Shown: piece by piece, positions 3,093-60,803 of the stretch
Layout of the letters: every line of letters begins with the position of its first letter
How positions within the stretch are numbered: the first letter of the stretch is position 1
Assembly (NCBI GenBank): GCA_007376385.1
Contig: VMGC01000001.1
Span: 224,001-288,000 of the forward strand
Direction of reading: 5' to 3'
DNA: 64,000 nt
Source of the DNA: Parcubacteria group bacterium Gr01-1014_8
GTDB lineage: Bacteria; Patescibacteriota; Minisyncoccia; Phycocordibacterales; UBA2100
Made by a program: the position numbers and the translations under genes
The notes under the pieces: generated by a model
What the model was told of the DNA's origin: nothing
What the model saw: only the letters and a program-made list of their open reading frames with translations
Database searches by the model: none

Positions 3093-3830
3093 ATGCGCGT
3101 TGGCTCGGTCGGTATCATTGGGTACGGTAATTTTGGCGCGTTTTTACACGTGCTATTGAAGCGTTTTGCGCCGCAGATCACCGTCCGCGTCTTCACGCCA
3201 GAAAAGAAACCAGATGGCGCCACATTCTTTTCGATGGAAGAAGCGGCTGTGTCAGACGTTGTTGTGCTTGCTGTTCCTATCAGCGAATTTGAGAACGTAT
3301 TGGAGGATGTATTGCCACACGTCAAAGAGACCAGTGTCATCGTGGATGTCGCCACCGTGAAAATGCATACCGCAGATGTGCTCAAGCGGCTCGCGCCACA
3401 TAGGTCATATATTGCAACTCATCCGATATTCGGGCCCGAGAGCTATGCAAAACGGGAGGGGAACGTATCCGGTTTCAGAGTCGTCATTACGGACCATACC
3501 CTGTCAAAAGATGTGTACAAGGCTACTGTATCGTTCTTAAGGAAAACAGGTTTTGCGGTCATTGAAGTGAGCGCGGATGAACATGATAAACGCTTGGCAC
3601 AAACGCTCTTCTTGACACATTTTATCGGGCAAACCATCACTGAAGCAGAATTTGACAGAACTGACATCGACTCGGTTTCATTCGGATTTCTGATGGATGC
3701 TGTAGAGAGCGTTAAGCACGACAAGCAATTATTTCAAGATGTCTATCGCTACAACCCGCACTGCAAGGCGACATTGGACCGGTTTGAAAAGGCAGAAGCA
3801 AACGTGCGCCGGATGCTCGATAAAAGCTAG
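3093..3830 (+). CDS. tyrA: Prephenate/arogenate dehydrogenase (TyrA family)
   Basis: N-terminal NAD-binding GIIGYGNFGAFL. Size and aromatic-pathway context fit the TyrA family. Confidence 0.6.
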   Translation: MRVGSVGIIGYGNFGAFLHVLLKRFAPQITVRVFTPEKKPDGATFFSMEEAAVSDVVVLAVPISEFENVLEDVLPHVKETSVIVDVATVKMHTADVLKRLAPHRSYIATHPIFGPESYAKREGNVSGFRVVITDHTLSKDVYKATVSFLRKTGFAVIEVSADEHDKRLAQTLFLTHFIGQTITEAEFDRTDIDSVSFGFLMDAVESVKHDKQLFQDVYRYNPHCKATLDRFEKAEANVRRMLDKS

Positions 3831-14935: not shown

Positions 14936-15574
14936 ATGGTTAAGGTGAAGATCTGCGGCAATACGAGCAAGGAAACTGCGCTTGCCGCGCTTTCGTATGG
15001 TGCAGATATGCTTGGATTCATTGTGAATGTTTCTGGATCAAAGACTTCCATAACGCCAGAGCAGGCGCGTGAAATTATTTCTGCGCTGCCGTCTGGCGAG
15101 ACTGTGGTGGTTACAACTGCAACAGATGCTCAGGAAATAAAAAGACTTGCACAGGAAACTGGCGTTTCAACAATTCAATACCATGGTGAAGTGTCACCGG
15201 AGACAATTGCAAAGATAAAAGATGAGCTACCGAATATCGCCGCGTGGAAAGTAATCCATGTGAAAGATGAGAGTGCGATTGATGAAGCAAGGAAATATGA
15301 AAGTATCGTAGACGCGATACTTTTGGACACAGCACAGGGCGGCCAAATCGGCGGAACTGGTACTACGCATGACTGGAATATTAGCCGCATAATTGCAGGT
15401 GATTATTCCAAACCGATCATCTTGGCCGGGGGACTGAATCCAGACAATGTGGAGGAAGCAATACGGGTCGTGAAGCCCTATGCGGTAGACGTGAACTCCG
15501 GTGTTACTAACTCGGATGGCTCAAAGGACCTTGAAAAAGTGAAGCTTTTCATAGAACGTGCAAAGGGCAAATGA
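14936..15574 (+). CDS. trpF: Phosphoribosylanthranilate isomerase
   Basis: MVKVKICGNTSKETALAALSYGADMLGFIV N-terminus, and AGGLNPDNV. Confidence 0.85.
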   Translation: MVKVKICGNTSKETALAALSYGADMLGFIVNVSGSKTSITPEQAREIISALPSGETVVVTTATDAQEIKRLAQETGVSTIQYHGEVSPETIAKIKDELPNIAAWKVIHVKDESAIDEARKYESIVDAILLDTAQGGQIGGTGTTHDWNISRIIAGDYSKPIILAGGLNPDNVEEAIRVVKPYAVDVNSGVTNSDGSKDLEKVKLFIERAKGK

Positions 15575-15591
15575 GGCCTTAAAATCGTCGC

Positions 15592-15619
15592 TTGACAGGG
15601 GTCGCAAGTCGACTATACT
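15592..15619 (+). promoter_or_regulatory. Sigma70-type promoter, probably driving the rRNA transcript
   Basis: TTGACA (15592-15597), 16-nt spacer, TATACT (15614-15619). It sits right after the trpF stop, about 440 nt upstream of the 16S 5' end. Confidence 0.45.
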
Positions 15620-16340
15620 GTCCTGAACTACCGACCTCGGTGGTTTTTTTGACCCTCCTGTGAGGAGGGACAGAAGGCTTGAACTTTGACAACTGAATAT
15701 GAAAAATTGTACGCAAAACCAAAAAAGAAATTGGTAAGTAAAATTGTTGCCGGCGCTCGCTCGGAATTGAAAATTTATTTTCATTTCGCTCGCTCGCATG
15801 GGCAATAAGAATTCTTGTTGTTCTCAAGTTAGGAACAATAAGACACACACAAAAGCAAGAAAACAGAAAATACATATTGAGGTTCCAGGAGGATCTCATG
15901 TGTAAGTAAACAGTAATAACGAGACAAAAGATCCCCCAAGGGGACTGCGACTTTCTACGATTCAAATGAATCGTGAAAGTCGGGAGATATACATTCTTTT
16001 GTTTCGTCCATCCTAGAGATATTGAAGCAATTCAAATTCTTGAAAGTGGTGTAAAAACCATTTTTACTTAGAGTTTGATCCTAGCTCAGGGTGAATGCTG
16101 GCGGTATGGATAAGGCATGCAAGTCGAATGGGTTAGACCCATGGCAGACGAGGTAGTAACAGGTAGGTACGTCCCCGGAAGTCGGGCATAACCAGCCGAA
16201 AGGTTGGATAATTCCCGATGGTCTCGCAAGAGTAAAGATTTATCGCTTCCGGAGCGGCCTGCTTTGTATCAGCTTGTTGGTGAGGTAACGGCTCACCAAG
16301 GCTATGACGCATAGGGGACCTGAGAGGGTGACCCCCACCG

Positions 16341-16377
<37 letters not shown>

Positions 16378-16891
16378 TGCAGCCGAGAATATTCGACAAT
16401 GGGCGAAAGCCTGATCGAGCGATACCGCGTGGTGGATGAAGCGCTTCGGCGCGTAAACACCTTTTATGAGGGAAGAAATTTTGACGGTACCTCATGAATA
16501 AGGGGCTCCTAACTCTGTGCCAGCAGGAGCGGTAATACAGAGGCCCCAAGCATTACCCGGAATTACTGGGCGTAAAGGGTGCGTAGGTGGTCATATTAGT
16601 CGCCTGTTAAAACCCACGGCTCAACTGTGGAACCGCGGGCGAAACGGTATGACTAGAGAGAGTGAGAGGTGAATGGAACTCATGGTGTAGGGGTGAAATC
16701 CGTTGATATCATGGGGAACACCGAAAGCGAAGGCAATTCACTGGCACTTTTCTGACACTCAAGCACGAAAGCGTGGGTAGCGAACGGGATTAGATACCCC
16801 GGTAGTCCACGCCCTAAACGATGATCGCTGGATTTGGGGAGTATCGACCCTCTCCGAGTCGAAGCTAACGCGTTAAGCGATCCGCCTGGGT

Positions 16892-16923
<32 letters not shown>

Positions 16924-17390
16924 AGACGGGGGCTTGCACAAGTGGTGGAGCGTGTGGCTCAATTCGTCGCTAAGCGAAGAACCTTACCAGGGCTAGAAAT
17001 CCAGCTGCATACTTTGGGAAACCTTAGTAGCCTTCGAGGGTGCTGGACAGGTGATGCATGGCTGTCGTCAGTTCGTGGTTTGAATCGTTCCCTTCAGTGG
17101 GGTAACGAACGCAACCCTCGTTGCCTGTTATATTTGTCAGGCGAGACTGCCCCCTCACGGGGGAGGAAGGTGAGGATGACGCCAAGTCAGCATGTCCCTC
17201 TGATGTCCTGGGCTGCACACGCGCTACAATCGCCGTTACAACGAGGCGCAACGTCGTAAGACCGAGCAAATCTTTCAAAAGCGGCGCCAGTTCGGATTGA
17301 GGTCTGCAACCCGACCTCATGAAGCCGGAATCACTAGTAATCGCGGGTCAGCCACACCGCGGTGAATACGTTCTCAAGCCTTGTACTCAC

Positions 17391-18234
17391 AATAAAAGCG
17401 CACAGCAGTGTACATATCTATGCGGTTAAAATCCGCACCTCTCTTTCGTACAGAGAGCGTAGCAGAAGGATAGTTGTTATCCGCGAGGATGATAATGGAG
17501 GATCCTAATGCAAAGAGCAGCCATTTCGCACAAAAGCCGACCGACCTGTCAATGGGTGGTGAGGATAGGGAAGGTCCTAGAAAGGCAAGAAAATGGATGC
17601 CTAGAACAGATACGCACATAACCTGTGGAGATCTGACGCTGTTATCCCAAAGATGGGATATGATGAATCTGACGCAGCGTCAGAAGTCAGCTGAGTCATA
17701 GTATTTGCAGATATGCAAAAAAGGACTCACTCAAAGCAAAATCTTAGTCCAGATTATGTTGTTGGACTCGTAGATGGTGAAGGAAGCTTTACTGTCTACG
17801 TAAGAAATCCAGACATAGAGAAAAAAGTCGCTCGAAGAGTGGTTGTAGAGCCAAAATTCTACATAAAACTAATCGAACGCGACAAAGATATTCTCTATGC
17901 ACTTCGAGATTTCTTCGGATGTGGAAGTATTTACTTCCAAAAAGATAATCGTCCGAATCATCAACATTGCTATCGTTACGAGGTCTTCCGGTGGGAAGAA
18001 CTTCAAACGATAATCATTCCGTTCTTCAAGCGGCACGTTCTCAAATTCGCGTCAAAACGGCACGACTTTGAAGTGTTTTGCATGATGATGGAGCTTCTCA
18101 AAAAAGAAGCACATCGAACGGAAAAAGGACTACGAGAGTTGTTTAAGTTGAAACAACGCATGCATTGAGCTCGCGTAGTGCGGGAAATCCGCTCGCTACG
18201 TGGGAACATCAATTCTTAGATTCAAGAAGATAAT
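17391..18234 (+). mobile_element. Intervening sequence (intron) in the 16S rRNA near E. coli position ~1390-1400, carrying a homing endonuclease gene
   Basis: The 16S collinearity breaks after CCTTGTACTCAC (17390) and resumes at CGCCCGTCAACTC (18235). The 844-nt insert contains the LAGLIDADG ORF. Confidence 0.6.
17713..18168 (+). CDS. LAGLIDADG homing endonuclease (single-motif type), intron-encoded
   Basis: 151 aa. VVGLVDGEGSF is a LAGLIDADG motif. The gene lies entirely inside the 16S insertion. Confidence 0.8.
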   Translation: MQKRTHSKQNLSPDYVVGLVDGEGSFTVYVRNPDIEKKVARRVVVEPKFYIKLIERDKDILYALRDFFGCGSIYFQKDNRPNHQHCYRYEVFRWEELQTIIIPFFKRHVLKFASKRHDFEVFCMMMELLKKEAHRTEKGLRELFKLKQRMH

Positions 18235-18488
18235 CGCCCGTCAACTCAGGGAAGCCGGGAGTGTCCGAAGCACATACTCGTTATGTACCAAGGCAAACTC
18301 GGTGACAAAGAGTAAGTCGTAACAAGGCACGGCTAGCGGAAGCTGGTCGTGGATTCATTCAAAATTGATTTCGATTTTCAGGTTCGCCTGATAATCGGAG
18401 CAGTCGATTTCTGTATCTCGATCGAGTACAGAAGAAGGTATGACATTGATCCTCAAACATGTCGGACAACTTGGAAAGACAAGTGGAT

Positions 18489-18600
18489 AATGGACGGAAC
18501 AAAAGAGTGTGTATATAGATCAGGTTATAGGTTACAGCTTGTAGCTTGTAGGAAATGCGAACAAACAAAAACGCCGACTCGATATGAGCACGGCGTTTTT
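18489..18600 (+). repeat. Intergenic repeat element copy A (22-mer AATGGACGGAACAAAAGAGTGT ... terminator hairpin CAAAAACGCCGACTCGATATGAGCACGGCGTTTTT)
   Basis: The 22-mer is identical at 20812-20833. The 35-nt hairpin/T-run module is near-identical at 20901-20937. The hairpin is followed by a U-run on both strands, so it may terminate in both directions. Confidence 0.6.
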
Positions 18601-18620
18601 GCGTGTGCTAGATTAATGCC

Positions 18621-18968
18621 ATGGGAGGCGTACCATTTGGAGTTTTTACACTGTGGGGGGTGCTCATGCTCCTTGTTGTGATTTTTCTTGAAAAGTTTGG
18701 GGAAATGTCTCCAATCGTCGCTTTTTTCGTGGTTCCTGTTTTAACTGTAATTATTGCGTTTCGAGTTGCAAAAATACTCGAAAGTATTATTCCTGAAAAT
18801 GTACCTCGCTATGAGAATGTATTGATGCGGCGTTGGTATGGAAGCCGTCTCGATGATTTTTTAATGTATATTGTTGGTGGACCGGTAAATTTTGCTCTGA
18901 TACTAGGGACCGCGATAGTTCTCGGTGTTTTTCTATTGATATATTTCACAACCGGGTCATTCTTTTAA
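18621..18968 (+). CDS. Hypothetical small membrane protein (115 aa, 3 predicted TM)
   Basis: Hydrophobic segments with no known motifs. Located inside the insert between the 16S and tRNA-Ile. Confidence 0.4.
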   Translation: MGGVPFGVFTLWGVLMLLVVIFLEKFGEMSPIVAFFVVPVLTVIIAFRVAKILESIIPENVPRYENVLMRRWYGSRLDDFLMYIVGGPVNFALILGTAIVLGVFLLIYFTTGSFF

Positions 18969-18974
18969 CTCGGC

Positions 18975-19070
18975 AGGGAAAAGAGTGTGTATGAAGAATA
19001 GCTGGTAGCTTGTAGCCAGCAGCTTGCAGCAAATACAAAACGCCCGAAAGGGTGGTTTTGTGTTGCAGCG
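18975..19070 (+). repeat. Intergenic repeat element copy C (AAAAGAGTGTGTAT...AGCTTGTAGC...AAAACGCC hairpin)
   Basis: Shares AAAAGAGTGTGTAT and the ...ACAGCTTGTAGC...AAATNCNAACA...AAAACGCC backbone with copy A. It follows the 115-aa ORF. Confidence 0.45.
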
Positions 19071-19113
19071 TTCACATGAGAGAAGTTGAAACCACTCCCG
19101 CTCTTGATACATC

Positions 19114-20778
19114 GTGATATGCTTTTTGTATATGACTGACGGGTTGAAAGAATGGAAGAAGCCGGAAGTAACAGACATTTCTTCTGAAGAGCCAGTAAAG
19201 GAGAAAGCGGAGCTGACAGAAGAATTAAAAGATCATATCAGGCAAGACTTGGAATTGGATACGTACGACACACCAGAGAAAGCGAAAAAACGCCGTACGC
19301 AATTGGCAATATTTTATGGTACGAACGTGCAGCAGATTGGGGCAGTTTCTGCGTATAAAAAGCGCGATGGTAAATTAAGCTTAGAGGCAAAATTTGAAAA
19401 ACTACCTCCCGCTCCACCGAAAATCGAAACAGAGTATGACAATTTTACAAAGCGTGCATGGCGGCAGAAAATCTTCAATGCTATAAAGAACGATTTTACT
19501 CAAGAGCAGCTGCAACGTGCTCGAGTCCTATGTTTTCCCGGACAAGCTTTACAAGAGGTGACCGAAGTTTATTTGCCACTAGGTATTCGACCAGAAAATA
19601 TTGTGTGTATTGAGAAGGATCCAGATGTTGTGAAAACCATGAGAAAAAACCTCAAGGCACTCATCCAAACGAAGGTGCTGAGCCAATCTGTCTCCATTTT
19701 CGAAGGAAGTGTCGAGGAATTTTTACAGAGCTCACATGAGCCCGTAACCATCGCTTCATTCGATCTTTTGGGGCCTATGTACGAGGGATTTTTGATGAGT
19801 ATTCCCAATCTCCGTGTCGCGGATAAATTCATGGTTATTACGAATTGTTTGCAGCGCAGGGAACAGAAAAATCAGCAAGATGCATTGAAGTCAATGACGT
19901 CAGCAACGCGTGCGGTAGGGAGCGCACTCGATGCGCTCCAGAATTATAAGCACATTCTCCCGGGTGTTGGCAGCACATCTTTCGACGTGAGTCACCTCAT
20001 GGCTCAAATTGCAAGGGCAAATCAACAACCGATAGACCTTTCAGAAGCGCGAGATGAAGGTGCGGCTATCACGATGATAGCTTTTCTCTTAGGAGGTCAA
20101 GCCAAACAGTCACTCGATGATCTCTACTCTGAAGCTAGCATCGTTCCACCGCGGTTCAAGTCAGATGACGACCGACAAGCTTTTGAAGATCACACGCTCG
20201 GAACACTGATACGTGGGATTGAACAATTAGTTATAAACTATTCTAGAGTGTATTCGCGATTGTCGCTGAAATCCGACGTAAACATATTGGAAAACACCCT
20301 TAGTAGAAGCGATACCGGAAAACATGGATTTTTATTGCACTTTCTCACCGTGGCGACGCATTGCATGAGCGATCTTACGATTTGCGATTTACAACGGTAT
20401 GAATATTCAAGCGAGAAATCCGGGTCTCCATATCAGACGGATGTGATCACGTTGTTTGATTGGAAGCGGAATTTCCGCGAGAAGCATCGGGAAGCATATC
20501 ATTTCATCCGAGATTGTTTTCGAGTGATCGGTCAACACTCGGTAGATCAGATTTCCTTCCAGTTTAAAAAAGGCATCACGGTTTTACCGAAAAACTATGC
20601 TGGCAGCAACGCAAAGATAGATTTAACGGTGAACGTAAACGGCAAGCAGTTTCTCAGTATATCGTTCAGCAAACTCCTTGAGCTAGTGGCTTACTTTAGG
20701 AAAACGGAGAAAATCGTTACAAAAGGAAAAATACCACAGGACTTTTTGGAACGGCCGCGAATCAAGATAGAAACATAG
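19114..20778 (+). CDS. Hypothetical protein (554 aa); N-terminal ~240 aa resemble a Rossmann-fold SAM methyltransferase
   Basis: VLCFPGQALQEVTEVYL (motif-I-like, compare Erm/KsgA hhEIGPGxGxLT), IVCIEKDPDVV (motif II hhhhExD) and FEGSVEEF (compare Erm/KsgA IHGDALKF). The C-terminal 300 aa are unrecognised. The gene lies in the AT-richer insert downstream of the 16S. Confidence 0.5.
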   Translation: MICFLYMTDGLKEWKKPEVTDISSEEPVKEKAELTEELKDHIRQDLELDTYDTPEKAKKRRTQLAIFYGTNVQQIGAVSAYKKRDGKLSLEAKFEKLPPAPPKIETEYDNFTKRAWRQKIFNAIKNDFTQEQLQRARVLCFPGQALQEVTEVYLPLGIRPENIVCIEKDPDVVKTMRKNLKALIQTKVLSQSVSIFEGSVEEFLQSSHEPVTIASFDLLGPMYEGFLMSIPNLRVADKFMVITNCLQRREQKNQQDALKSMTSATRAVGSALDALQNYKHILPGVGSTSFDVSHLMAQIARANQQPIDLSEARDEGAAITMIAFLLGGQAKQSLDDLYSEASIVPPRFKSDDDRQAFEDHTLGTLIRGIEQLVINYSRVYSRLSLKSDVNILENTLSRSDTGKHGFLLHFLTVATHCMSDLTICDLQRYEYSSEKSGSPYQTDVITLFDWKRNFREKHREAYHFIRDCFRVIGQHSVDQISFQFKKGITVLPKNYAGSNAKIDLTVNVNGKQFLSISFSKLLELVAYFRKTEKIVTKGKIPQDFLERPRIKIET

Positions 20779-20811
20779 TAAAGATATGTGTGACCTTAGG
20801 AAAGGCGGGGG

Positions 20812-20937
20812 AATGGACGGAACAAAAGAGTGTCCCGACGCGCGAGAGCGGTCGGGATCCCGACCGAAGCGTCGGGATGTATTGAAGAAAATGCTACAAC
20901 CAAAAACGCCGACTCAACATGAGCACGGCGTTTTTTT
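20812..20937 (+). repeat. Intergenic repeat element copy B (22-mer + GC hairpins + terminator CAAAAACGCCGACTCAACATGAGCACGGCGTTTTTTT)
   Basis: Direct repeat of copy A, separated from it by ~2.3 kb that contains the two unknown ORFs. Confidence 0.6.
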
Positions 20938-21657
20938 GATTTGGATTTGATATTCCTCCCGGCGGCAATGCAGGCACTGCCGCCAGGAAGACTTTCCCTC
21001 ACTGGGTTGGTCGTTTCTCAAAAGCCGTTGGCTTGGCTACGGTTTTTCGTGCCCACTGGCGTGACCGCCGGTTGGCTCCGTTGCTGGGCTTGCGCCCGCG
21101 CCTCTTCTTTCGAGTACTTGTCCTGTGCCCCATTCGGCACTCCCTATGTTCGAGTAAGCATTTGCAAAGAGCGGATTCCCTCTGCCACGTCGAACGTAGC
21201 ACGTATGTAGGTGCTTTGTCACGCTTTACTAAAGTAGAGTGGTGTATACGAACATAAAAAACACCGAGACAATTCTTAGGCACAGCAGCGCTTGAATGAA
21301 CGTGTCCCAACTAAGCACCGCCGACCCGGGAGGGTCGGCGGTGCTGGTTGTTGCCAGAGAGTGGGTATCCAGCGCGAGGGCTACTTACGTCCGTGCTTCT
21401 GTTTCTTCTTCCTCTTGCCGGCATTCTTCCCGCAACGAGGATTCCAATTGGAAGCCTGACGTGCTTTCGCCTCCGAATGGTTGTGACCGCGATGGCCCAT
21501 TTTCGTACCTCTCAACGTGGCATCATTGCCGCGGCTAAAGTAGCACATGAGCCATGGTTTTGCTACCATCGCGGGTACAAGCGCGTTTAGCTCCGGCGGA
21601 TGATACAGACACATCGGTCGCAGCGAGGCGCGGTTTGGAGTAGATTGGTTTGATAAC

Positions 21658-21729
21658 GCGCGTTTAGCTCAGTGGTAGAGCATCCCTCTGATAAGGGGAA
21701 GGCCGTAGGTTCAATCCCTACAACGCGCA
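21658..21729 (+). tRNA. tRNA-Ile (anticodon GAT)
   Basis: GCGCGTT acceptor, AGCTCAGTGGTAGAGC D-arm, anticodon loop CTGATAA (GAT), T-arm GGTTCAATCC, 3' acceptor AACGCGC plus A. CCA is not encoded. Confidence 0.85.
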
Positions 21730-21933
21730 CAAAAGACAGAAACACCTGCCGCAACGGCCAGGTTTTCTGCTTTTGTGGGAGCCGGAGCGATGTTGCGCGA
21801 GTACGCGCAACCGCGAGGCCGGGTCGGGAAAATTTGTTTGGGACGACAAACAAATTATTCCTGACCACAAGTCCATGTGTGACCACACTTCGACTCAAGA
21901 CGCACTCAGTGTACACTGAGTGCGACAATATCT

Positions 21934-23235
21934 ATGAACTATCACGTCATCGGCGGGAAAAAACTCTCTGGTTCTGTGCGGACCAATACTTCAAAGAACG
22001 CTGCAGTCGTACTGCTTGCGGCATCACTTTTGAATCGCGGAACTACAACGCTGAAGAGGATGCCGAAGATAGAGGAAGTGAACCGACTTATCGAGGTCAT
22101 GAAAAGTATCGGCGTGAAAATAGAGTGGACCGACAAGGAAATGACCATAATGCCTCCGAAAGAATTCGACCTGAAGAATGTAGACAAAGTCGCTGCGCAA
22201 AAAACCCGAAGCATAGCGCTTTTTATCGCCCCCCTTGCTCACGTGATGGATTCTTTTGACCTCCCCGCGCCAGCCGGATGCGATTTGGGCAAAAGAAGTC
22301 TCGGTGCGCACATTGACGCACTGGAGCGTCTCGGTATTTACATCAGCGGGGATGAAAAAAAGAATTCATATCACACTGAAGTTAAAGATAAGCAGCTGGC
22401 AGAAATAATCATGTATGAGGCGAGCGACACAGGCACAGAAAATGTGTTGATGGCTGCTGCTAAAATTCCCGGCAAGACGGTCATTAAATTCGCGAGTGCA
22501 AATTACATGGTTCAGGATCTATGTTTCTTTCTGGAAAAATGCGGTGTCAAAATTGAGGGCATCGGTACTTCAACGTTGGTTGTTCACGGAGTGAAAGACA
22601 TTGGTCTCGATGTTGTTGATGCGCCAAGCGAGGACCCGATTGAATCAATGTTTTTCATCTCCCTCGCCGCAACAACCGATTCGGAACTGACTATTGAAAG
22701 ATGCTCCATTGATTTTCTTGAGCTGGAGCTGCTTACTCTCGAACATATGGGCTTGAAATACAAAGTGGGAAAAAAATATCTGGCCGAAAATGGGCGCACG
22801 ACCTTATGCGATATCAAGATAAATAAATCAGAATTGCATGCACCGCCGGAGAAAATAGCTCCGCGTCCATATCCCGGCATCAACATCGATAACCTTCCGT
22901 ATTTCGTTTCTATTGCGACGCAAGCAAAAGGGGAGACGCTTATCCATGACTGGGTCTACGAGATACGCTCGTCCTACTATCTGGAAATGGCAAAGCTCGG
23001 CGCAGATGTAAAAAAACTAGACCAGCATCGCGTGTTAGTCAAAGGTCCCACGCCGTTACATGGCACAAATATCAAAGCGCCGCCTGCGTTTCGTCCTGCA
23101 TCTATCCTCCTCATCGGCATGCTCGCGGCCGAAGGCGAATCAACACTTTATGATGTGTATCCGATAAACCGCGGATATGAGAATTTGCACGAGCGATTGA
23201 AGTCGCTCGGTGCAAACATTGAAGCGATTGATTAA
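21934..23235 (+). CDS. murA: UDP-N-acetylglucosamine 1-carboxyvinyltransferase
   Basis: EPT-family fold. The GG[AG]K..G.V....SKNA motif is present as GGKKLSGSVRTNTSKNAAV, and there is a C-terminal INRGYENLHERLKSLGANI. Confidence 0.85.
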   Translation: MNYHVIGGKKLSGSVRTNTSKNAAVVLLAASLLNRGTTTLKRMPKIEEVNRLIEVMKSIGVKIEWTDKEMTIMPPKEFDLKNVDKVAAQKTRSIALFIAPLAHVMDSFDLPAPAGCDLGKRSLGAHIDALERLGIYISGDEKKNSYHTEVKDKQLAEIIMYEASDTGTENVLMAAAKIPGKTVIKFASANYMVQDLCFFLEKCGVKIEGIGTSTLVVHGVKDIGLDVVDAPSEDPIESMFFISLAATTDSELTIERCSIDFLELELLTLEHMGLKYKVGKKYLAENGRTTLCDIKINKSELHAPPEKIAPRPYPGINIDNLPYFVSIATQAKGETLIHDWVYEIRSSYYLEMAKLGADVKKLDQHRVLVKGPTPLHGTNIKAPPAFRPASILLIGMLAAEGESTLYDVYPINRGYENLHERLKSLGANIEAID

Positions 23236-60669: not shown

Positions 60670-60803
60670 TTTTAGGCAGCTATTTGCCTACACTGACGAA
60701 GCATGTCATCTCTAGCGGAAAGAAACATAGTCGTAACCCCGATACCACAGCGCTTTGCGCTGGCTACGGGGCAGGCCGGCTCATTTCACGCCGTACTTTA
60801 AAT

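Follow-up and report, generated by a model that had tools for sequence, protein, structure and literature searches.

Repeated copies of the 16S rRNA 3' flank border small gene cassettes in a variable slot of a Parcubacteria group genome

Introduction

What separates the 16S rRNA gene from tRNA-Ile in the genome of Parcubacteria group bacterium Gr01-1014_8, a tiny organism from groundwater, and where do the repeats within that DNA come from? In the 64,000-nt stretch analyzed here (GenBank assembly GCA_007376385.1, contig VMGC01000001.1, positions 224,001 to 288,000 of the forward strand; hereafter the window, numbered from its first letter), the 16S gene starts at 16063 (Rfam SSU match, 1278 bits) and ends near 18364, as read from the sequence and from the homologous end in a related locus, L005. 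tRNA-Ile(GAT) follows at 21658-21730 (ARAGORN), about 3.3 kb farther on. Between them lie two open reading frames (ORFs), ORF115 and ORF554, each followed by a related repeat and terminator element; the 16S gene, the repeat elements, both ORFs, and tRNA-Ile are all on the plus strand. A preliminary description of this DNA, made from the letters alone, noted the 3.3-kb distance correctly and took the segment for an AT-richer cassette insertion into an rRNA spacer, judged against a normal rRNA operon. That baseline was wrong: Rfam detects no 23S gene in the 64-kb window, the 16S and 23S genes are unlinked, and since such unlinking is common in Patescibacteria (bioRxiv 10.1101/705046), the absence of 23S from the window is ordinary. 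Here, we ask what the repeats are, how the locus varies among relatives within the candidate phyla radiation (CPR), and which process best accounts for its present form.

Results

Three related modules punctuate the interval, as the preliminary description had noticed. The outer two share the 22-mer AATGGACGGAACAAAAGAGTGT, present in exact direct copies at 18489 and 20812 (0 expected from 100 shuffles), and a second sequence, AAAAGAGTGTGTAT, occurs exactly at 18501 and 18979. From the latter position, the middle copy (18979-19039) is 72% identical to 18501-18561 over 61 nt. About 50 nt upstream of the 16S 5' end, on the plus strand, a leader strand at 15987-16011 (core ACATTCTTTTGTTTCGTCCA at 15991-16010) has complementary counterparts at 18490-18514 (25 nt, 88%) and at 20813-20833 (21 nt, 90%). 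When the window was scanned with a 29-nt probe, copies 1 and 3 were the best partners of the leader, at -36.7 and -32.8 kcal/mol versus -26 or weaker elsewhere. This short-probe scan replaced long-range RNAduplex runs, which were uninformative, with shuffled controls equal in score.

To follow the repeat in relatives, loci were fetched by exact matches to the 19-mer GGACGGAACAAAAGAGTGT. Reference genomes, one per species, yielded 61 loci, all from CPR genomes (labeled Kaiserbacteria, Paceibacterota, Parcubacteria, and similar), and metagenomes yielded 120 loci; a check for circularity covered 188 loci or contigs. Because retrieval required the exact 19-mer, the sample represents lineages with an undiverged core, and the intactness of 16S-proximal copies is partly built in. 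Wherever the 16S gene was visible (more than 100 relatives), the 19-mer lay about 120-250 nt past its 3' end on the same strand, and an inverted partner was found upstream in all scanned loci where the 16S 5' flank was visible. All 20 core pairs form in each of the 13 genomes showing both flanks. Four of four one-sided substitutions keep pairing (G-U or G-C), and three flanking pairs are mostly kept. At the level of sequence, we therefore regard it as settled that the 22-mer is the trailer (3') strand of the 16S leader-trailer helix.

In Escherichia coli, RNase III cuts this helix, and more than 17 bp are essential for active 30S subunits (PMC10250234); by analogy, the duplex predicted here would also be an RNase III substrate. 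The likeness to the pre-16S helix lies in the complementary strands up- and downstream of 16S and in the length of the duplex, 20-27 bp against the >17 bp needed in E. coli (PMC10250234), kept in all relatives examined. The window differs in that the trailer strand belongs to a class of loci where it is present two to five times, in direct orientation and with protein genes in between, in that the core is invariant in sequence across genomes whose 16S differs by ~10%, and in that no 23S gene lies downstream. In some lineages, the helix may reach far past 20 bp, because a hairpin in the leader complements hairpins of one module type: leader 15931-16011 holds the palindromic hairpin CGACTTTCTACGATTC...GAATCGTGAAAGTCG beside the helix strand and is ~72-77% complementary over ~80 nt to the hairpins of C-type trailer modules (L041, L058, L107, and L155).

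Given that the 22-mer is the trailer strand, each repeat and terminator element appears as a copy of the 16S gene's own 3' flank, composed of a helix strand, one or two hairpins, and a predicted intrinsic terminator. The preliminary description had assigned the repeat to the inserted element; complementarity to the leader assigns it instead to the host, as its 16S helix strand plus 16S terminator. Module 1 (18470-18600), putatively the working 16S 3' flank, comprises a GGAAAGA-loop hairpin (18470-18483), the trailer strand with the 22-mer (18489-18514), a hairpin (18521-18548), and terminator T1 (18567-18600). Module 2 (18947-19062), a left-degenerate split copy, runs in the order CACAAC, a CCGGGU...ACUCGG hairpin whose loop contains the ORF115 stop codon, CAGGG, AAAAGAGTGTGTAT (18979-18992), a hairpin (19001-19020), and a small terminator at about 19036-19062. 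Module 3 (20795-20941) carries the second exact 22-mer (20812-20833), two CCCGAC/GTCGGG hairpins (20834-20878), and terminator T1' (20902-20941). Its CCCGAC is able to pair with leader GTCGGG at 15980-15985.

Predicted folds of 18462-18606 and 20795-20942 contain AAAAACGCCG...CGGCGUUUUU stems, are more stable than shuffled sequence (z scores of -4.4 and -3.3), and leave the trailer strand of modules 1 and 3 unpaired. The Module 2 fold is weaker (z of -2.7, with 2 of 200 shuffles equally stable). The terminator module has no copies in the 64 kb other than those at 18567-18600 and 20902-20935, which are 93% identical over 40 nt, and its predicted stem-loops have an A-run on one side and a U-run on the other (inverted arms 18561-18576 and 18591-18606). 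With this structure, T1 and T1' could terminate in both directions, in agreement with the preliminary description, and structural criteria predict them to be intrinsic bidirectional terminators; a simple terminator scanner missed both, their loops being longer than 8 nt. Module types recur among relatives at other positions. Module 2 has homologues in L005, as the module nearest 16S, and in L013, as the second module. In L050, L041, and L043, the module nearest 16S is of the Module 3 type (CCCGAC hairpins with a CGCCGAC...CACGGCG terminator).

Two other identities for the repeat were considered and rejected. A generic terminator scattered through the genome, which the preliminary description had named, together with a gene order common to all relatives, as what would count against insertion, was ruled out: in genome and metagenome scans, the 22-mer and the 19-mer matched only at 16S flanks. 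A phage attachment site was ruled out by the absence of any match to the 19-mer in 2.9 million viral contigs.

The DNA between the flank and tRNA-Ile is hypervariable among relatives. The insert has a GC content of 43.6% against a window mean of 48.9% (standard deviation [SD], 1.7% in 2.3-kb windows), about 3 SD below, and only 1% of 2.3-kb windows are as low; the windowed GC comparison thus bears out its description as AT-richer. An assembly artefact was ruled out, since an independently assembled Logan contig, L068 (SRR8863434), is 100% identical over 18326-21694 and the same architecture occurs in dozens of unrelated assemblies. Across relatives, the order of 16S, trailer strand, tRNA-Ile(GAT), and aroA is kept, and the distance from trailer to tRNA-Ile ranges from 147 to 7,443 nt in 42 reference genomes and from 107 to 10,247 nt in metagenome contigs. 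The 145 cargo ORFs of at least 80 amino acids (aa) fall into 105 clusters and are almost wholly unrelated between genomes. Few families recur: S-adenosylmethionine (SAM) decarboxylase, arginine/ornithine decarboxylase, and a PhnB-like protein. The other cargo is miscellaneous and accessory, including toxins, an Abi protein, sensor kinases, and transporters. L013, the nearest 16S relative compared (97% identical), has a MazF gene between two copies instead, and L005 is without ORF115, so gene order is not shared in relatives. Because order is kept while distance and cargo vary, these data support insertion into a variable slot, a lineage-wide hotspot, over ancestral spacer content. The insertion that the preliminary description proposed therefore stands; the site-specific or repeat-mediated recombination that it attached to the insertion is a putative mechanism.

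Several further features of the slot were observed. SAM decarboxylase lies on the minus strand just before tRNA-Ile in 10 loci (L008, L040, L041, L050, L052, L053, L057, L058, L059, and L064) and arginine/ornithine decarboxylase is present in 6; these polyamine genes are semiconserved in the slot and absent from the window. tRNA-Ile closes the slot on the opposite strand in L014, L045, L049, and L099, which indicates local inversions at the far border. Genes of the IS200-like Y1 (HUH) transposase type occur in the slot of L010 (488-1111), L049 (2648-3322), and L052 (6799-7473). Pfam Y1_Tnp matches the first at an E value of 1.1e-13 and the second weakly, the third was grouped by BLAST only, and none is in the window cassettes. 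The Y1 genes are candidate actors in hairpin-dependent single-strand DNA events.

At least 14 of the 61 genome loci and 39 of the 120 metagenome loci carry two to five direct copies of the strand. The intervals between copies define 71 cassettes of 301-2,820 nt (median near 700 nt), two of them in the window, with 56 cassette genes on the plus strand and 38 on the minus strand. Many cassette ORFs lack a Pfam match. Those with one, among the families listed, are mostly type II toxin-antitoxin genes (YafQ/RelE, 5; MazF, 3; Fic, 2), and further matches were to HicA, RelB, a nucleotidyltransferase, GNAT enzymes, and one DDE transposase. The integrase that the preliminary description had suggested seeking was not found: the 25 commonest Pfam families in each of two sets, 141 cargo and 94 cassette ORFs, include no integrase or recombinase, the rest of the genome and the others of the ~60 window genes being unscreened.

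The copies form a mosaic. Module types shift position in the array between genomes, as seen above for Module 2, and copies within one locus share more than 100 nt (L013, L022, and L041) or the ~20-nt core alone. Those in the window have core and terminator in common, and the sequence between these is unrelated. Proximal copies are intact in these loci, whereas many downstream copies have point mutations, left truncations, or insertions. At least nine downstream copies are without the left half and none is without the right half, whose conservation downstream equals that in the proximal copy.

About 15 loci have a downstream copy that is interrupted, always at the same point, giving GGACGGAAC / CCCCAGUACCAC...GUGGCUACGGGG CAGGC / AAAAGAGUGU. 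The insert, which we call type A, is a 43-nt hairpin with a conserved lower stem, two conserved bulged bases, and an upper stem with two-sided compensatory changes at six pairs; it is placed after unrelated genes. A covariance model found 21 copies in about 1.1 Mb, mostly at the fixed split position. Outliers lie directly after the tRNA-Ile 3' end in L097 and after another tRNA-like end in L103. One copy is in the window at 60734-60776 on the plus strand (51.4 bits; E value, 2e-11), 40 kb from 16S, where it occupies the intergenic space of two plus-strand genes; in front of it stands GGAAAGA ... GTCGTAAC, resembling a decayed left half of the 16S trailer module. Judged by eye, Module 2 looks like a decayed type A split copy (CACAAC, CCGGGU...ACUCGG, CAGGG, AAAAGAGUGU). 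No Rfam family matches the loci that bear the type A hairpin.

Copies are also split in a second way, by CTTGTCCTGAGCGAAGTCGAAGG or its reverse complement CCTTCGACAAGCTCAGG (oriented coordinates: L030, ~962; L133, ~2154; L166, ~1780; L171, ~1030; L115, 5365). In several type A hairpins (L084, L087, L166, and L159), this motif makes up the loop, and it looks like a GC-rich dispersed repeat. One contig, L006 (3,208 nt, Logan, three cassettes), has identical 30-nt ends (1-30 and 3179-3208; k-1 for k = 31) and is the only one of the 188 loci with a terminal overlap. A circular molecule and a repeat cycle in the assembly graph would explain this overlap equally well.

The first cassette gene of the window, ORF115 (18621-18968; 115 aa; GC content, 39.9%), encodes a small protein with three hydrophobic segments and thus fits its earlier description as a membrane ORF. 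No homologue was found at all, and it is absent from the NCBI protein set; ORF115 may be a young or spurious gene. Membership in a shared cassette family was rejected, as ORF115 is not similar to the membrane ORF of L006 and has no homologue. Neither ORF115 nor ORF554 has a Pfam (E value, ≤0.1) or PHROG match.

For the second gene, ORF554 (19132-20778), the family alignment and database entry P0001 place the start at ATG 19132, giving 548 aa, rather than at the GTG at 19114. Exact look-up gave no entry for the 554-aa form, and the 548-aa form was found as P0001. Its family has only 13 members in a collection of 5.8 billion proteins. In the predicted structure (pLDDT, 78.7), roughly residues 110-250 adopt a methyltransferase-like fold with the seven strands of a Rossmann-like arrangement; the methyltransferase fold that the preliminary description proposed is retained, at this position instead of the extreme N terminus and in a 548-aa instead of a 554-aa protein. 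Based on this model, ORF554 carries a class I SAM-methyltransferase-fold domain and represents an orphan family. The family has a conserved VLC-x-PGQ and an invariant FD-x-x-GP, which are loosely motif-like with respect to SAM-binding and catalytic motifs. The C-terminal ~300 residues match nothing, and a PDB sequence search with the family profile gave chance matches to centrin alone. Relative to class I SAM methyltransferases of the RsmD type, ORF554 differs in its low identity (14-18%) and lack of a Pfam match, in having the invariant FD-x-x-GP in place of a DPPY-type motif, and in its extra N- and C-terminal regions, which total ~400 aa and are unmatched.

ORF554 homologues occur in differing surroundings. 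In L005, a homologue (79% identical protein) lies directly behind 16S, in the order 16S, trailer strand, Module 2-like hairpin and small terminator, gene, hairpin-split strand copy, terminator. L006 holds a 73% identical homologue as one of three genes, each then followed by a strand copy. The homologues in the window, L005, and L006 are flanked by differing module types, and ORF554 is in none of the 61 reference loci. Distant homologues (P0005 and P0006) lie off 16S loci; tRNA-Asn and other accessory genes are nearby, and the repeat is absent. The window and L005 are homologous from AAAAGAGTGTGTAT to the start codon, including a promoter-like TTGAAA/TTGGAA ... TGATATGCT. ORF554 would thus be expressed from its own putative promoter. 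No ribosome-binding site is visible and the promoter-like sequence is very close to the ATG, a context that would fit leaderless or Shine-Dalgarno-independent initiation.

Upstream of these cassettes, the 16S gene (16063-18364) is itself interrupted. An insertion of about 844 nt (about 17391-18234) follows ...CCTTGTACTCAC (about 17390), the gene resuming at CGCCCGTCA (about 18235); the site is near E. coli position ~1400. The junctions were read from the sequence, and homology of exon 2 was seen across loci; Rfam calls the gene complete at 16063-17422, skipping the 3' exon. The intron contains a LAGLIDADG homing-endonuclease ORF (17713-18168; Pfam LAGLIDADG_1; E value, 5.5e-15) and a group-II-D1D4-1 Rfam match (17639-17726; 42.3 bits versus a cut-off of 35), and homologous insertions occupy the same site in many relatives (L021, L053, L059, and L066). 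L124 has an Rfam group I intron match (437-1210; 56.6 bits) at or just after the 16S 3' end, so the 16S 3' region of this clade appears to host differing intron types. The 16S 3' end itself (18350-18364) reads GGAUUCAUUCAAAA, in L005 as well, versus GGAUCACCUCCUUA in most bacteria; with this end, the CCUCC anti-Shine-Dalgarno sequence is absent.

The locus is bordered by trpF (14936-15574) upstream and aroA (21934-23235) downstream of tRNA-Ile, the conserved far border of the slot. A promoter-like site for the 16S transcription unit at 15592-15619 on the plus strand (TTGACA, 16 nt, TATACT) fits 11 of 12 consensus positions and is the best in 15500-22000, as a consensus match only. Between Module 3 and tRNA-Ile lies a GC-rich (55%) stretch, 20942-21657. 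Just its last ~80 nt or so, adjoining tRNA-Ile, are conserved among relatives, and it is without a convincing gene. A small basic minus-strand ORF (21381-21614) ending in ...KRKKKQKHGRK is matched at the corresponding position in L047 by one ORF of 44% identity, and a perfect 14-bp hairpin (21314-21345) is placed after it.

Discussion

The best explanation for this locus, and in our estimation a moderately probable one, is hotspot insertion with recombination anchored on the conserved 16S flank. In Kaiserbacteria/Paceibacteria-type CPR, where 16S is unlinked from 23S, the DNA from flank to tRNA-Ile would gather small accessory cassettes. The proximal copy (18489-18514) would most likely be the working helix strand, with T1 ending the 16S unit, and the downstream copies would most likely be by-products of cassette entry. 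A donor fragment anchored in the extremely conserved 16S/trailer sequence would bring in the donor's flank and the first gene or genes behind it. If it joined in front of, or within, the resident flank, the result would be flank, gene, flank in direct orientation. Such entry would need no element-encoded integrase and would leave a shared core surrounded by sequence specific to the donor, with resident copies truncated on the left and the array growing at its 16S side. We infer this donor and recipient arrangement because the copies share only core and terminator and because truncation of downstream copies is left sided only; the assignment of the working copy and the promoter and terminator functions are likewise read from sequence features.

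Several observations weigh against this explanation. Many loci with kilobases of cargo have one strand copy, so insertion need not lead to duplication. Neither a recombination event nor an empty- or filled-site polymorphism within one population was observed. A listing of the 25 commonest Pfam families could hide a rare recombinase, and the rest of the genome was unscreened. The helix core is invariant and hence without two-sided covariation inside it. The covarying hairpin splits about 15 downstream copies at an identical position after unrelated genes, and window/L005 homology ends exactly at GGAAC/AAAAGAG. The fixed split and the exact breakpoint fit a site-specific crossover better than random illegitimate joints.

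Genomic islands and hotspots beside tRNA and rRNA genes, together with homology-facilitated illegitimate recombination, are among the closest known parallels. As in those systems, variable DNA lies between conserved genes (here 16S and tRNA-Ile/aroA), the insert has atypical GC content and border direct repeats, and content turns over between close relatives. The inserts here differ in being very small (units of 0.3-3 kb), the typical integrase, transposase, and phage genes were not found, and the repeat consists of functional rRNA flank, from tens of nt to more than 100 nt long, not of a tRNA 3' end. The leader-trailer helix is textbook knowledge, and variable islands beside stable RNA genes and cassette arrays are known. 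In the literature, we found no description of arrays that have a 16S processing-helix strand and terminator as the repeat unit and extend across a CPR clade; among such arrays, that of the window is an ordinary one.

The fixed split gives some weight to an integron-like, site-specific platform, which we consider possible but would put forward only tentatively. The unsplit 16S-proximal trailer strand would serve as resident attachment site, and each cassette would bring a copy of its own, often type A split. Crossover between GGAAC and AAAAGAG would be catalyzed by a recombinase or HUH-type enzyme, and cassettes would excise as circles and re-insert beside 16S. Excision would leave a circle junction in which the ORF554 3' end is joined to GTATATAGATC... 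(full form ...AGGCGGGGGAATGGACGGAACAAAAGAGTGTGTATATAGATC) and an empty-site junction ...GACAAGTGGATAATGGACGGAACAAAAGAGTGTCCCGACGCG. The commonest two-copy pattern is unsplit strand, gene, and type A split strand (L005, L066, L084, L087, L104, L124, L126, L151, L174, and L185). The type A hairpin with its fixed position, conserved bulges, and six covarying pairs, the exact GGAAC/AAAAGAG break, and the left-only truncation of downstream copies are also consistent with a platform, as are the integron-like cassette size and richness in toxin-antitoxin genes, the circle-like ends of L006, and the IS200-like Y1 transposase genes in the slot (L010 and L049). This evidence is countered at several points. 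No recombinase lies beside 16S, where trpF is the upstream neighbor, and none is among the listed cassette families; the repeats are without dyad symmetry and without the attC signature (RYYYAAC ... GTTRRRY). Many copies lack the hairpin, which also occurs off the repeats (60734-60776 and after tRNAs) and is perhaps a small element in its own right. Of the 188 contigs, just one (L006) looks circular, which an assembly-graph repeat cycle explains equally well.

Comparison with chromosomal integrons is instructive on both sides. Shared features are a fixed platform beside a conserved gene, small and mostly one-gene cassettes, many of them of unknown function or toxin-antitoxin type, and a repeat after each cassette, some being structured hairpins with bulged bases. 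The differences begin with the integrase: the IntI type was not found here, and the neighbors are trpF and aroA. Whereas attC sites are imperfect palindromes with RYYYAAC ... GTTRRRY ends, the repeat core TGGACGGAACAAAAGAGTGT has neither dyad symmetry nor GTTRRRY, and the ends of the type A hairpin are unlike attC. Cassette genes lie on either strand here, and ORF554 has its own promoter-like sequence. Finally, the repeated element is a host rRNA-processing sequence. With no IntI found and no attC consensus, the arrays do not have the sequence features that define an integron, and the integrase expected of a classical island was also not found. Sites that bracket modules are also known from dif modules of Acinetobacter plasmids, which, like the arrays here, have short conserved sites around one- or two-gene modules, including toxin-antitoxin modules. 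The dispersed 43-nt hairpin repeat and the occasional IS200-like Y1 genes in the slot recall REP/RAYT hairpin repeats. In contrast to the alternating inverted Xer sites of dif modules, the sites here are direct and without dyad symmetry.

A role for the extra copies at the RNA level seems improbable as the explanation of the locus. They could be kept as alternative or decoy partners for the 16S leader, creating RNase III sites on read-through transcripts or in trans with the released leader; at such sites, cassette mRNAs would be trimmed or their level coupled to rRNA synthesis. Alternatively, by removing a boxA-type antitermination complex, they could allow the following terminator to act. 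The leader strand ACAUUCUUUUGUUCCG is similar to the boxA sequences of E. coli and Bacillus subtilis. The boxA consensus drifts between phyla (PMC7665894). Copy 3 is a perfect 22-mer with extra CCCGAC complementarity to leader GTCGGG, the strand is single stranded in predicted folds and a terminator follows each copy, and the right half of downstream copies is as conserved as that of the proximal copy, all of which favors such a role. However, the mutations, left truncations, and insertions in many downstream copies would weaken pairing, and the leader is no longer in cis once RNase III has cleaved. An RNA-level role also leaves the origin of the copies unexplained, so that it would supplement the other explanations rather than replace them.

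Tandem duplication of the 16S 3' flank in place, with divergence around genes that were always present and no horizontal input, would suit L022 and L013, whose copies share 114-223 nt including neighboring sequence, but is very unlikely for the window, where copies share core and terminator only with unrelated sequence between, the insert is about 3 SD below window GC, cargo is wholly different between relatives with 97%-identical 16S, and ORF554 relatives sit at other loci in other genomes.

If the overall picture of a hypervariable cassette slot is correct, a large uncultivated group of CPR bacteria would have a dedicated, fast-turning gene-acquisition slot on its single 16S gene, bordered by an RNA-processing element that is essential for ribosome assembly. 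It is tentatively conceivable that the clade may run a gene-capture platform in which the 16S trailer strand acts as attachment site, the hairpin is attC-like, and the recombinase is encoded elsewhere. The structured hairpin, with its fixed position, may point to an RNA or recombination element of a new kind. The duplicated processing-helix strands raise the question of whether they interfere with, or are used in, rRNA maturation. Sequence downstream of 16S is strain variable, which affects binning, long-amplicon typing, and the assignment of 16S-linked genes. Should the overall picture hold, the slot would also provide an alignable locus for tracing gene flow in CPR genomes, in which mobile elements are poorly known.

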